From Escherichia phage moha, in sequence record MN850590.1: DNA of 64,000 nt; one strand, 5' to 3'. Made by a program: the position numbers and the translations under genes. The notes below the pieces were generated by a model. It saw only the letters and a list, made by a program, of their open reading frames with translations, had not been told where the DNA came from and ran no database searches. Shown here piece after piece: positions 59,026-62,736 of this stretch (position 1 is the stretch's first letter; each line of letters starts with the position of its first letter).

Positions 59026-59029
59026 TAAA

Positions 59030-59050
59030 AAGGAGACTTCGGTCTCCTTT
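59030..59050 (+). terminator. rho-independent terminator
   Basis: GGAGAC-ttcg-GTCTCC TTT. Confidence 0.7.
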
Positions 59051-59054
59051 CGTG

Positions 59055-59084
59055 GTTTACATCTTCCTCTAGGCATGATATGAT
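59055..59084 (+). promoter_or_regulatory. early promoter
   Basis: -35 GTTTACA / 17 bp / -10 TATGAT. Confidence 0.5.
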
Positions 59085-59113
59085 GTACTTACACAAACCA
59101 AGAGGAAAACATT

Positions 59114-59488
59114 ATGAATATGTCTCAAGCAATTTTTACTGCAATCACCGAAAACACAACTGTTGAAGTAGTTTCTCCACTGGCAACCTACGTTATTCTT
59201 GCTCCTAAAACTATTGTATCTCGTATGGAAAACACAGGCAAACGTATCGTACAAATAGTTGGAGCTGGAAATCAAAAACTTGATTATCTACGAACCATCA
59301 AAGCTTACGAACATTTCCAACTCGAAAAAGGTTCTCCTATCCAGGTAGAACTCGTAAATGGTGATATCGTTCGAGCAATGTTCCATCATTTCTATGCATT
59401 GAATGACCCATCTAAAGCGGTTCGTTTAATTGCATACGACGCAAACCAAAACGAAATCAACGCAGATGTATCTAAATTACGTTTTTAA
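59114..59488 (+). CDS. hypothetical protein
   Basis: 124 aa, SD agagga. Confidence 0.75.
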   Translation: MNMSQAIFTAITENTTVEVVSPLATYVILAPKTIVSRMENTGKRIVQIVGAGNQKLDYLRTIKAYEHFQLEKGSPIQVELVNGDIVRAMFHHFYALNDPSKAVRLIAYDANQNEINADVSKLRF

Positions 59489-59517
59489 GTTTACTTCTCC
59501 AGTAGTTGTGTTATTAT
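59489..59517 (+). promoter_or_regulatory. early promoter with 13-bp SD-sequestering inverted repeat
   Basis: -35 GTTTAC / 17 bp / -10 TATTAT; TCTCCAGTAGTTG pairs CAACTACTGGAGA (59526-59538). Confidence 0.6.
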
Positions 59518-59543
59518 AGATCTATCAACTACTGGAGAACAAA

Positions 59544-59861
59544 ATGAAAACCATCGATTGTAAAGCAGAATTTAAGATTTTTTATCAAGGTTCAAGTAGT
59601 TCAGCTAACATCGAAAACATGCTTTGTCCTCCTGAAGAAACAGGAGTTCTGTCTGAAACTGGACGTAAGAAAAACTTGGATCGTGTATTCTTTACTGAAG
59701 ATATCGGTTTAGCAAAGATTTATGCAGGACGAGCAGCACGCTCTTATGGAGGTGAACCACGTCTCTATCGAGTAATTTCTCCGGTAGATGTAGTTCAAAT
59801 GAATGATACTAAAGGCGCTACAGTTTATCACGCTGAATGGGCCTTTTGCGAGGAAATATGA
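59544..59861 (+). CDS. hypothetical protein
   Basis: 105 aa. Confidence 0.7.
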   Translation: MKTIDCKAEFKIFYQGSSSSANIENMLCPPEETGVLSETGRKKNLDRVFFTEDIGLAKIYAGRAARSYGGEPRLYRVISPVDVVQMNDTKGATVYHAEWAFCEEI

Positions 59862-60049
59862 GCAAATTAACTAAAGTTACTTTTATCGGTTGGTTTAAAA
59901 GCGGTGAGATGTTCACTAAAGATATGATGTTATCAGGTGATCGCGAAGAAATCGAGTGGGTTACGGTACAACTTGCTGAAGTAAACAAAACATTAGTTAA
60001 AGCATTTATTAATGACGAGAAAGTTTTTGAAGCTGATTTCAGAGGATAA
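59858..60049 (+). CDS. hypothetical protein
   Basis: 63 aa from ATG 59858 (ATGA overlap). Confidence 0.6.
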   Translation: MSKLTKVTFIGWFKSGEMFTKDMMLSGDREEIEWVTVQLAEVNKTLVKAFINDEKVFEADFRG

Positions 60050-60050
60050 T

Positions 60051-60263
60051 ATGTATTCAACTGTGTTTAAACCATCAACATATGAATTTGCATCAACTAC
60101 ACAATGGAAAGCTCTTATTCTGGAAGGATGGGAACTAATGATGGACTGTGAAGCATCTGAAAAGTTTCCACACGGCAAAGTGGACTTCGTTAAATTTGCT
60201 GTACGTCCGACTAAACGACAGATTCGTCAAGAAAAACGCAAATTTCGAAAAAGTTTAAAATAG
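60051..60263 (+). CDS. small basic protein, RPTKRQ-motif family
   Basis: 70 aa ending VRPTKRQIRQEKRKFRKSLK. Confidence 0.65.
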   Translation: MYSTVFKPSTYEFASTTQWKALILEGWELMMDCEASEKFPHGKVDFVKFAVRPTKRQIRQEKRKFRKSLK

Positions 60264-60265
60264 CC

Positions 60266-60295
60266 GTTTACAAGCACCACATACTGTGTTACTAT
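60266..60295 (+). promoter_or_regulatory. early promoter
   Basis: -35 GTTTACA / 17 bp / -10 TACTAT. Confidence 0.55.
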
Positions 60296-60323
60296 CTTTC
60301 TATCAACTACAGAGGAAATTGAA

Positions 60324-60692
60324 ATGAAAAAATTAATCGCTTTAGCAATGGTATTTGGATTAACCGGATGTGGTGCCCATGGCTTTATCCCTAATAATGT
60401 CGGCCAATTGATTTACAATCCTAATGTTAAACAATATGAACAACCTAAAGTTGAAGTGGAAGACCCGGTTACTGTAGGTAATCGAATGATTCAAGCTGAT
60501 GCCCATGCTCAACGTTATCGTGACTCTGATACTGTAGCATTGTCAAAAGAACAACGCGTTAAAGAACATTGCTTACAGGCTACTGAAATCGCATTCATTC
60601 GCTATGTTGAAACAACTGGCAAAGAGCCTACCCAGAAACAAATCGCGAATAACTACGTCCAGTGTATTGAACGTTTAAACAAATTTAATTAA
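60324..60692 (+). CDS. lipoprotein
   Basis: 122 aa; signal peptide with lipobox LTGC. Confidence 0.8.
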   Translation: MKKLIALAMVFGLTGCGAHGFIPNNVGQLIYNPNVKQYEQPKVEVEDPVTVGNRMIQADAHAQRYRDSDTVALSKEQRVKEHCLQATEIAFIRYVETTGKEPTQKQIANNYVQCIERLNKFN

Positions 60693-60695
60693 TTG

Positions 60696-60725
60696 GTTTA
60701 CACCAAAGTTAAAACAAGATACTAT
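60696..60725 (+). promoter_or_regulatory. early promoter
   Basis: -35 GTTTACA / 17 bp / -10 TACTAT. Confidence 0.55.
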
Positions 60726-60753
60726 AAACATAACAAATCAAGAGGAAATTAAC

Positions 60754-61002
60754 ATGGAATTATTCGTAGCTAGTTCAGTAGCAGTTTTAATCGCAGGTAT
60801 TGGTTCAATCATCATTTACATGTTGCCTTGGGTAATCGCACTTATTCGTGGCACAAAAAGCACAACAGCAATCTTCTTTGTATCTTTACTCTTTAACTGG
60901 ACGATGATTGGTTGGATTGGAACTTTAATTTGGTCTATCGTTGCCGAAAAGAAATCTGCTCAGCAGCCTCAACAAGTAATTATTATTCGCGAAAAAGAAT
61001 AA
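60754..61002 (+). CDS. small membrane protein (possible superinfection-immunity type)
   Basis: 82 aa; two TM helices, GWIGTLIW motif. Confidence 0.7.
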   Translation: MELFVASSVAVLIAGIGSIIIYMLPWVIALIRGTKSTTAIFFVSLLFNWTMIGWIGTLIWSIVAEKKSAQQPQQVIIIREKE

Positions 61003-61006
61003 ACTT

Positions 61007-61036
61007 GTTTACATTATAGATGGACTATAGTATAGT
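61007..61036 (+). promoter_or_regulatory. early promoter cassette (PeSL-like)
   Basis: -35 GTTTACA / 17 bp / -10 TATAGT; IR ggactat..agtcc. Confidence 0.6.
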
Positions 61037-61065
61037 AGTCCTATCAAATCAACTAAGGAGTTAAA

Positions 61066-61359
61066 ATGAAAAAGTTATCATTGGCAGCAATCTTACTTGC
61101 AGTATCATGTGCACCGGCTCCAGTTACGGCAGGTTATGATAAAGACCTCTGTGAGTGGTCAATGACTGCAAATCAAGAAGATGTTGAACAACAAATCTTC
61201 TCTGATATCATGAACATCACTAAACGAGACCGTCCTAATATGGTTAATAAAGTTGTTGAACAACTTAAGTCTGGCGGTGTCATGCAGTACAACTATGTTT
61301 TGTATTGTGACCCTAATTTCGATAACAAAGATATCGTAACCGAAATCACAGGTGAATAA
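61066..61359 (+). CDS. lipoprotein
   Basis: 97 aa; lipobox AVSC. Confidence 0.8.
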   Translation: MKKLSLAAILLAVSCAPAPVTAGYDKDLCEWSMTANQEDVEQQIFSDIMNITKRDRPNMVNKVVEQLKSGGVMQYNYVLYCDPNFDNKDIVTEITGE

Positions 61360-61360
61360 T

Positions 61361-62011
61361 ATGATTTATTATATGCACAAAAATGCGCCATTTAAATATG
61401 GTAAATTTCCTAATGCACAATGTTATAATATAACGCCGAATGAAAATAATAACGGATACCATCTCGGTGTAATTTTTGTAATTGTTAAAGATAACGAAAT
61501 CGTTGCCTGGGCAGATTTTAAAGGTACAACATATGATGTTAATCCTGTGCCTTTCACATATTACAATATAATGGATTTGGCATATGATTATAATTGGTTT
61601 AATCATGACACGTTGGCTCATATTGAAGGTGTAGGATTTGACATCTCTTATTCTAGCTATTCATTATGTCCTATGAGCCGAGCTCACGGTAAAGATGTAT
61701 CATATCTTTCAATTCGGAAACGTGTAAACTTCAAACGTAGTACAGAGTATGTTGGTGGACTCTTTGTTAAAGATAATAAAATAACCCGTATTAGTTATCC
61801 TCTAAGTGTAGGCCAAAAAGATGTTGATGTTGATTTGGACTTAACTGAAAATAACATTAATCGTATTGCTTCTGTATATTTTGATATCGATGAAAAAATT
61901 GTAGTGTGTGGATATGAATTACCACCTGAAGAAAAGGCTGAAGCAATTGAAGTCGAATTAGAAATTTCTGTTGATGACCAAATATTTAATGCATTTATGA
62001 ATCGAGGTTAA
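61361..62011 (+). CDS. hypothetical protein
   Basis: 216 aa from ATG 61361. Confidence 0.8.
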   Translation: MIYYMHKNAPFKYGKFPNAQCYNITPNENNNGYHLGVIFVIVKDNEIVAWADFKGTTYDVNPVPFTYYNIMDLAYDYNWFNHDTLAHIEGVGFDISYSSYSLCPMSRAHGKDVSYLSIRKRVNFKRSTEYVGGLFVKDNKITRISYPLSVGQKDVDVDLDLTENNINRIASVYFDIDEKIVVCGYELPPEEKAEAIEVELEISVDDQIFNAFMNRG

Positions 62012-62012
62012 A

Positions 62013-62210
62013 ATGACTACTGCAATTTGCACTGGTTCTAAAATTAGTGTTTTTACAAGTTTTGAAGATTATGAAGTTGTTTCAAAACACCAATGCCATA
62101 TTAGCGTAAAAGCTAATGACGGTGTAATTTGGAATATTCCACAGTATGAAGGCACTACATATGAAGTCACAGATATAAATGGTGACAAAGCAATCTTTGT
62201 AATTGATTAA
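62013..62210 (+). CDS. hypothetical protein
   Basis: 65 aa. Confidence 0.6.
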   Translation: MTTAICTGSKISVFTSFEDYEVVSKHQCHISVKANDGVIWNIPQYEGTTYEVTDINGDKAIFVID

Positions 62211-62229
62211 ATATACTCAGGAGGTACCT

Positions 62230-62697
62230 ATGGGTATTATTAACACTGCGATAGATTCTGTTTACGCATATAAGTTTATTCGACTAATGCAAAAACCTTT
62301 TACCGAATGGAAAGCATACGAAGCCAAAATCATCGATGAACGTGGAAGTGTTCTTAAACGTCCTTCCACTCCTGAAGAGAAAGCGGCTTATACACCTTTT
62401 CATGCTTCAGTTCGTTCAATGAAGCGAATGATGAACACTGTTCCAGGTCTTAATGGAATGGCATCAATGATGTCTGCTTGGAGTGCTGTAGCTTCACGCT
62501 ATAACATTACGGAAGAACAACAGAAAGAAATATTTAAAGAGCTCCCTTTATTTGAGGATATGGTTGCTGGTGATTCAGGCGACAGTCCTCAAGCTATTGC
62601 ATCAGGAACAACTACAGGTGCAGTCGTAAATAAAGGTCCAGAACAAATTCCTTCCAAGAAAAGAAAGCGAATTAAAGTAAATATTAATAAGTTGTGA
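62230..62697 (+). CDS. hypothetical protein
   Basis: 155 aa from ATG 62230, SD ggagg. Confidence 0.75.
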   Translation: MGIINTAIDSVYAYKFIRLMQKPFTEWKAYEAKIIDERGSVLKRPSTPEEKAAYTPFHASVRSMKRMMNTVPGLNGMASMMSAWSAVASRYNITEEQQKEIFKELPLFEDMVAGDSGDSPQAIASGTTTGAVVNKGPEQIPSKKRKRIKVNINKL

Positions 62698-62736
62698 TAT
62701 GATGGCCTTATTAATTTAAGGCCTCTGGAGAATACT

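Follow-up and report, generated by a model that had tools for sequence, protein, structure and literature searches.

We analysed a 64,000-nucleotide stretch of the genome of Escherichia phage moha (sequence record MN850590.1), hereafter called the window, and within it the region between gene 41, which codes for the replicative helicase, and gene 61, which codes for the primase. Megablast matches identify the source genome as that of an RB69-like phage of the genus Mosigvirus. Gene 41 (57583-59025, + strand) is a 480 amino acid (aa) open reading frame (ORF), the product of which is 99.6% identical to gp41 of RB69 and 85.8% identical to that of T4; gene 61 (62737-63759, + strand) is a 340-aa ORF with a product 99.4% identical to gp61 of RB69 and 74% identical to that of T4. 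The 3,711 bp in between (59026-62736) are exactly the space from the gp41 stop to the gp61 start. A preliminary description of this DNA had reported ten ORFs and five early-promoter cassettes here, and we recovered both: the ORFs are all on the + strand, to which the coordinates below refer unless stated otherwise, and every one of them matches a Pfam or PHROG family, the matches to Pfam Dmd, DUF7279, DUF5481, Imm_superinfect, T4_Spackle and AdfA all exceeding threshold, while the cassettes begin at 59055, 59489, 60266, 60696 and 61007. From left to right the genes are ORF041c, ORF040c, dmd (61.5), tifA (61.4), imm.1, imm, sp (61.3), adfA (61.2), ORF033c and a long form of 61.1. The region is almost certainly the standard early-gene cluster of RB69-like phages (Mosigvirus), an expanded version of the dmd-61.4-sp-61.2-61.1 cluster of T4.

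Conservation of the interval between genes 41 and 61

The annotated order in RB69 is 41, ORF041c, ORF040c, dmd, 61.4, imm.1, imm, sp, 61.2, ORF033c, ORF032c/61.1, 61. Moha agrees with RB69 in gene content, gene order and strand, with a one-to-one correspondence that is broken only by the last RB69 gene, which is split. The RB69 sequence matches the region at 98.2% identity over 100% of its length (NC_004928, 17278-20986), and apart from residue 15 of ORF040c, His in RB69 and Gln in moha, there are a few other point differences between the two phages. When the 3,711-base region was compared by megablast with 50,697 phage records, 360 of these matched, 153 of them covering at least 80% of the query and 155 being 95-99% identical; the best match was phage vB_Eco_mar005P1 (98.9% identity over 100%). 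The 41-61 block is a constant feature of the genus Mosigvirus, found in all close relatives. The identities of the genes, their synteny, the promoters and the conservation of the cluster are established here, and the cluster itself is already known, being annotated in RB69 and more than 150 relatives, with published functions for half of its genes.

The preliminary description had placed genes 41 and 61 of T4 next to each other, which is not the case. Gene 41 of T4 ends at 20612 and gene 61 begins at 18963, and the 1,648 bp gap contains dmd, 61.4, sp, 61.2 and 61.1. These are orthologues of five moha genes, with gene order and flanking genes unchanged. For the cluster as a whole, imm.1 included, tblastn identities to T4 range from 33% to 72%. 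The early-promoter cassettes of moha recur in T4 before dmd, sp and imm.1. ORF041c, ORF040c and ORF033c are missing from the T4 gap, as found for ORF040c by tblastn. The imm.1-imm pair lies elsewhere in T4, between genes 43 and 42, with one early promoter and 11 nt between the two genes, whereas in moha and RB69 both are in the 41-61 gap and each has its own promoter. The 43-42 interval of RB69 contains no imm but a group of genes for sugar metabolism, annotated as an arabinose 5-phosphate isomerase, a mannose-1-P guanyltransferase-like protein and a phosphoheptose isomerase; Klebsiella phage Roth66 has retained the T4 arrangement for imm.

Beyond these phages, the 41-61 gap contains ten genes in SP18 (Gaprivervirus), including ORF040c, dmd, sp, ORF033c and 61.1, four genes in Roth66, four in PWKp18 and a single one in Proteus phage PM2. 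Because its gene content differs between genera in this way, the gap is a long-standing variable region with a semi-conserved gene set, and not a single insertion. The same variation could be read in favour of a recently acquired accessory island between otherwise adjacent genes, as the preliminary description proposed, together with the 2.06 kb by which the gap exceeds that of T4 (3,711 vs 1,648 bp) and with ORF041c, which is essentially confined to Mosigvirus (tblastn found 132 records with at least 95% identity and, besides these, just 2 distant ones). We nevertheless consider such an island very improbable. Genes 41 and 61 are non-adjacent in T4 and in every relative examined; the GC content of the region (0.32-0.40) is the same as that of its flanks, with no compositional break; Pfam and PHROG searches found no integrase, homing endonuclease or other mobility gene among its ORFs, and a repeat search found no flanking direct repeats. 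A comparison of synteny with T4 and the RB69 relatives, the check that the preliminary description had itself suggested, speaks against an insertion as well: five of the ten genes are at the same place in T4, and about 150 Mosigvirus records share the complete block at 95-99% identity, which is the kind of conservation in related genomes that the description had named as refuting its view.

Exclusion and counter-defence genes

Imm and Spackle are the two classical superinfection-exclusion proteins of T4, and both are encoded in the cluster. The imm gene (60754-61002) codes for an 82-aa, two-helix inner-membrane superinfection immunity protein that matches Pfam PF14373 (Imm_superinfect) with 57.2 bits against a cut-off of 27.9, and that is 65% identical to T4 Imm over the full length by tblastn (83 aa aligned). 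Its 19-residue Kyte-Doolittle windows above 1.6 begin at residues 1-16 and 40-41, and the motif IGW is present; the membrane protein with two helices and a GW motif noticed in the preliminary description is thus real, and is Imm. The functions given here for Imm and Sp, as for Dmd, TifA and AdfA below, are taken by analogy from experiments in T4 and RB69. According to the notes of the T4 and RB69 records, T4 Imm blocks DNA entry of superinfecting T-even phages, an activity shown for T4 only. In the inner membrane, moha Imm would likewise block DNA entry and shut the infected cell to further T-even phages.

The sp gene (61066-61359) codes for Spackle, the periplasmic inhibitor of the gp5 tail lysozyme (Pfam PF25676, T4_Spackle, 144.8 bits). 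The protein matches PDB entry 6x6o over residues 1-97 (E 1e-39), with Cys29 and Cys81 both aligned. Its N-terminus, MKKLSLAAILLAVSCAPAPVTA/GYDKD, aligns with the T4 cleavage site, which gives a predicted signal peptide of 22 residues, and the sequence GYDKDLCEW at the start of the mature protein is identical to that of T4. N-terminal sequencing of T4 Spackle has shown that residues 1-22 are removed and that the soluble protein is released from the periplasm (PMC7650644), and T4 Spackle binds and inhibits the lysozyme domain of gp5 (PMC7677548). From the periplasm, moha Spackle would inhibit the gp5 tail lysozyme and, like Imm, shut the cell to further T-even phages.

Two products of the region had been described as lipoproteins, on the basis of the motifs LTGC and AVSC, and this holds for one of them at most. 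AVSC belongs to Spackle and fails the canonical lipobox ([LVI][ASTVI][GAS]C after a signal peptide), its Ala at position -3 being outside the pattern. The corresponding motif of T4 Sp, LASC, is closer to a lipobox, yet the protein is cleaved after residue 22 and is soluble, so that this lipobox-like motif is evidently not used; by analogy with T4, moha Sp would not be a lipoprotein either. LTGC belongs to Imm.1 (60324-60692, 122 aa), a predicted secreted lipoprotein that matches Pfam DUF5481 (38.2 bits) and is 33% identical to T4 Imm.1. Here the motif is a canonical lipobox at residues 13-16, after MKK and a hydrophobic stretch, with LAGC as the T4 counterpart, and Imm.1 alone of the two is a credible predicted lipoprotein. 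Two homologue searches found only three real relatives of Imm.1. As two of these (P0122 and P0124) lack the lipobox Cys and have an ordinary signal peptide ending in AHA, the family appears to be always secreted but not always lipidated.

Imm.1 bears on a reading close to that of the preliminary description, in which the cluster would be chiefly a battery of lipoproteins and small membrane proteins for exclusion or receptor masking, with Imm.1 acting as a third exclusion factor beside Imm. Imm and Sp are indeed exclusion proteins, imm.1 adjoins imm in both T4 and RB69 although the site of the pair differs, and Imm.1 has a signal peptide and a lipobox in both phages. Such a battery is unlikely, however, since Sp is soluble and not lipidated in T4, the lipobox Cys of Imm.1 is missing in two relatives, and at least three genes of the cluster would act on toxins inside the cell and not at the envelope. 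Our literature search on imm.1 and superinfection in bacteriophage T4 found no function for Imm.1. Its AF2 model has a mean pLDDT of 63 and is confident for the three C-terminal helices only; a Foldseek comparison with the PDB gave nothing better than E 2.5, and we made no functional inference from it. The name "iduronate sulfatase" given to Imm.1 in the RefSeq records of T4 and HX01 appears to be an annotation artefact, as no such family was matched. Of the superinfection exclusion that had been proposed for three proteins of the region, the part concerning Imm and Sp is right but textbook knowledge; what had been missed is that the cluster is equally a counter-defence cluster, through Dmd, TifA and AdfA.

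The dmd gene (59858-60049) encodes a protein of about 60 aa that inhibits the toxin RnlA (Pfam PF17587, Dmd, 75.2 bits with the cut-off at 27; identity to T4 Dmd 57%). It stands before 61.4, as in RB69 and T4, and its start overlaps the ORF040c stop (ATGA). The next gene, tifA (60051-60263), encodes an inhibitor of the ToxN toxin (Pfam DUF7279, 72.1 bits) that is 100% identical to RB69 gp61.4. It has been shown that Dmd inhibits RnlA, and RB69 TifA is experimentally a potent inhibitor of ToxN (PMC9391042). The RefSeq name "DNA polymerase" for gp61.4/TifA, again in the T4 and HX01 records, looks like another artefact, as no such family was matched. The third gene of this kind, adfA (61361-62011), encodes anti-DarT factor A (Pfam PF23813, AdfA, 397.5 bits, E 1.4e-119). 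Numbered from MHKNAPF, as in the published primers, residue 164 of moha AdfA is Arg, as in wild-type RB69, and not His. AdfA with Arg164 neither binds nor neutralises DarT1, while the R164H form does both (PMC11257639); by analogy, one would expect DarTG1 to act on moha if the phage has no intact 30.3 (adfN) gene. Together the three proteins would disarm abortive-infection toxins of the host, with RnlA as the target of Dmd, ToxN as that of TifA and DarT as that of AdfA.

Early promoters and RNA structures

The window has 27 matches to the early-promoter pattern GTTTAC-N17-19-TAnnnT, where 3.3 would be expected; none of 100 shuffled sequences reached 27, and 25 of the 27 matches are on the + strand. 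In the region there are five early-promoter cassettes, each intergenic and just upstream of an ORF: TTTACA-17-TATGAT (59055-59084) before ORF041c, TTTACT-16-TATTAT (59489-59517) before ORF040c-dmd-tifA, TTTACA-17-TACTAT before imm.1 (60266-60295) and again before imm (60696-60725), and TTTACA-17-TATAGT (61007-61036) before sp-adfA-ORF033c-61.1 and probably gene 61. At the window-wide rate for the + strand about 1.45 cassettes would be expected in 3.7 kb, and because the Poisson probability of five or more is about 0.02, we regard the region as moderately rich in promoters. An alignment of all five cassettes extends over about 60 nt (-35, -10, CTATCAA, GAGGAA, ATG), and all five promoters agree with the T4-group early consensus TTTACW-N17-TAYWAT, which is that of the promoter/stem-loop (PeSL) cassettes described in variable regions of T4-like genomes (PMC4122927). 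No match to a MotA-type middle-promoter pattern was found within the region. Early transcription by the host sigma-70 RNA polymerase from these T4-type promoters would yield five units, namely ORF041c; ORF040c-dmd-tifA; imm.1; imm; and sp-adfA-ORF033c-61.1, the last probably continuing into gene 61.

A simple terminator scan found none at the gene boundaries, and the hairpins came out by folding instead. One of them, the GC-rich GGAGAC-UUCG-GUCUCC (59029-59050; -12.8 kcal/mol, z -3.3), follows gene 41 and stands just before promoter 1, with which it forms a PeSL-like arrangement; the scan missed it, its T-run being short. Another, GGCCUUA-N6-UAAGGCC (62704-62724; -12.0 kcal/mol, z -2.9), stands just upstream of the ribosome-binding site of gene 61. 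The strongest structure is an inverted repeat (I1, 59490-59544) with 19-nt arms that are 89% complementary, in which the spacer of promoter 2 pairs with the ORF040c Shine-Dalgarno sequence. Its folding energy is -21.2 kcal/mol (z -4.45), and none of 200 shuffled sequences was as stable. Transcripts reading through from upstream would mask the ribosome-binding site of ORF040c, and those starting at promoter 2 would not. The spacer of promoter 1 is likewise complementary to the downstream Shine-Dalgarno sequence (59064-59107), with a weak fold, and a TTCTCC spacer is also present in several other early promoters of the window (at 5550, 13493, 16959 and 20197). This suggests a recurrent device that masks ribosome-binding sites on read-through transcripts.

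The likeness to the PeSL cassettes (Arbiol 2010; Comeau 2014, PMC4122927) lies in the promoter consensus followed by a Shine-Dalgarno sequence and ATG, and in the close packing of the cassettes where gene content is variable among relatives. The difference is that only the first moha cassette has a clear upstream stem-loop, while the second has the inverted repeat spanning promoter and ribosome-binding site instead. Modular, promoter-flanked gene shuffling may have built the cluster, as the literature on such cassettes would suggest (PMC4122927).

Two further observations were made on the promoters and flanks. A 65-nt promoter cassette is present twice, at 26859-26923 and 27849-27913, 990 bp apart and with 95% identity. 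Each copy precedes an ORF that codes for about 310 aa (26941-27870 and 27933-28883, respectively), and this looks like a tandem pair of cassette plus gene. Directly after gene 61, on the minus strand, there is a 65-aa hydrophobic ORF (63756-63953) that is the counterpart of RB69ORF029w; the records of Roth66 and PWKp18 likewise show homologous small opposite-strand ORFs behind the primase gene.

ORF040c and the uncharacterised genes of the cluster

ORF040c (59544-59861, 105 aa) is the little-studied item of the region. Its AlphaFold model (pLDDT 84.8) matches ADP-ribosyltransferases, so that the protein is predicted to have a minimal ADP-ribosyltransferase fold of the Arr/KptA type; in a comparison with viral models, the match was to a phage protein with the name "Rifampin ADP-ribosyl transferase" (36% identity, E 1e-6). 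Direct sequence searches in Pfam (including Arr-ms at E 0.01), NCBIfam, PADLOC and the PDB yielded nothing usable. By an exhaustive profile search we obtained 218 relatives. Many of them take the form of a domain some 95 aa long that is part of a larger protein, the largest having 3,924 aa, and three of the eight giant relatives that were tested score above the Pfam Arr-ms cut-off of 25 bits on exactly the homologous segment (P0137, P0153 and P0130, with 27.5, 29.4 and 26.9 bits). The link of ORF040c to Arr-ms in sequence is thus transitive only. The partner domains of the giant relatives are ART-PolyVal, NUDIX, GNAT and Toprim, and we take such giant multi-domain architectures to be the "polyvalent proteins" of phages and conjugative elements. 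P0143, P0149, P0178, P0167 and P0185, of 1,000-3,900 aa, belong to these giant multi-effector proteins, which come from phages and plasmids.

With Arr (rifampin ADP-ribosyltransferase), KptA/Tpt1 and the anti-CRISPR protein AcrF11 (PDB 6kyf), ORF040c shares a conserved first strand with the motif YHG[ST], and with Arr it is further connected through the relatives that score on Arr-ms. It differs from all of these in its size of just 105 aa, in having no direct profile match and, in the moha copy, in the loss of the His. The fold assignment is not new, since some GenBank records already label members of the family "putative ADP-ribosyl transferase". Our search of the literature on ORF040c and ORF041c found no experimental work, the sole match being a 2006 paper on T4-like genomes; the "ORF040c" of that paper is RB49ORF040c, which is a different gene.

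The family is found in 609 phage records, with hosts that include Escherichia, Klebsiella, Acinetobacter, Aeromonas and Vibrio, and for most members the identity is 60-88%, an unusually high figure in view of their small size and accessory nature. In an alignment of 33 members 24 positions are invariant, including Tyr60 and Glu103, and His15 is nearly so: 115 of 116 relatives have it, and moha has Gln15. Codon 15 (59586-59588) is CAA here, CAC in RB69 and HX01 and CAT, also His, in SP18. The altered residue belongs to the YHG[ST] motif of the first strand, the His of which would serve in NAD+ binding. The closest phage record to the moha protein is 99.0% identical and none is 100% identical; Gln15 could be an inactivating mutation private to moha, or else an error in the sequence. 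In Bas47 (AlbertHofmann), a 1-nt deletion in a T-run just before the same His codon (L004, ~745-760, homologous to window positions 59575-59590) frameshifts the N-terminus of the ORF040c homologue, for which the record annotates just an 80-aa ORF. The same gene would then have been hit a second time, independently. ORF040c is directly upstream of dmd in moha and in SP18, and elsewhere in the genome in Lw1 and 44RR2.8t.

One might speculate that the uncharacterised genes extend a counter-defence operon. ORF040c in particular would then be an active ADP-ribosyltransferase of the Arr type, with a host defence component, an RNA or a small molecule as its substrate, and would share its transcript with Dmd and TifA. 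The fold of ORF040c, its strong conservation in phages of many host genera, the invariance or near invariance of His15, Tyr60 and Glu103, the company that the domain keeps in the giant proteins and the overlap of its stop with the dmd start are all in favour of this. On the other side, there is no direct sequence match in Pfam, NCBIfam or the PDB and no experimental data on ORF040c in the literature that we searched, and Gln15 in moha together with the Bas47 frameshift would mean that its activity is dispensable or lost in some isolates. We regard such an operon as quite possible, without favouring it.

The remaining genes gave less to build on. ORF041c (59114-59488, 124 aa) matches phrog_10668 (2.5e-85) and nothing in Pfam, NCBIfam, PADLOC or the PDB; a match to phosphoheptose isomerase (0.059) was treated as noise, as were NCBIfam matches of the uncharacterised ORFs far below the cut-off. 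ORF033c (62013-62210, 65 aa; phrog_3249, 3.2e-33) has a counterpart in SP18 (66% identity) and none at the T4 locus. The long form of 61.1 (62230-62697, 155 aa) matches phrog_2086 (1.5e-73), and for these two genes the sequence searches of Pfam, NCBIfam, PADLOC and the PDB gave nothing usable. 61.1 is the most widely conserved gene of the gap and the one that makes up the whole of it in PM2; T4 61.1 (54 aa) matches only the C-terminal 40 aa of the long form, T4 having kept no more than the last third of the gene. It is a single 155-aa ORF in moha, HX01 and Bas47, and the split in RB69 arises from a frameshift in the reference, which divides it into ORF032c and 61.1 (by comparison with L001, 6204-6670); this is either an error of the reference or a mutation specific to RB69.

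That ORF041c, ORF040c, Imm.1, ORF033c and the long 61.1 are further exclusion or counter-defence factors is rather doubtful at present, the strongest candidate being ORF040c as a stand-alone Arr-like ADP-ribosyltransferase acting on a defence component or an RNA. We infer any role of these five genes, as we do the shuffling mechanism.

Several points have to be set against the interpretation of the region as the standard Mosigvirus early-gene cluster with exclusion and counter-defence functions. Half of its ten products (ORF041c, ORF040c, Imm.1, ORF033c and 61.1) have no demonstrated function, and AdfA carries the allele reported to be inactive against DarT1. The transcription units are deduced from motifs, and with a clear upstream stem-loop at the first cassette only, the link to PeSL shuffling is circumstantial.

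The gap between genes 41 and 61 of the T-even phages is a hotspot in which genes for exclusion (imm, sp) and for counter-defence (dmd, tifA, adfA) are gathered under closely spaced early promoters. It is therefore reasonable to look for new counter-defence functions among their unnamed neighbours, of which the conserved, Arr-like ORF040c and the secreted, Imm-linked Imm.1 are the best candidates.

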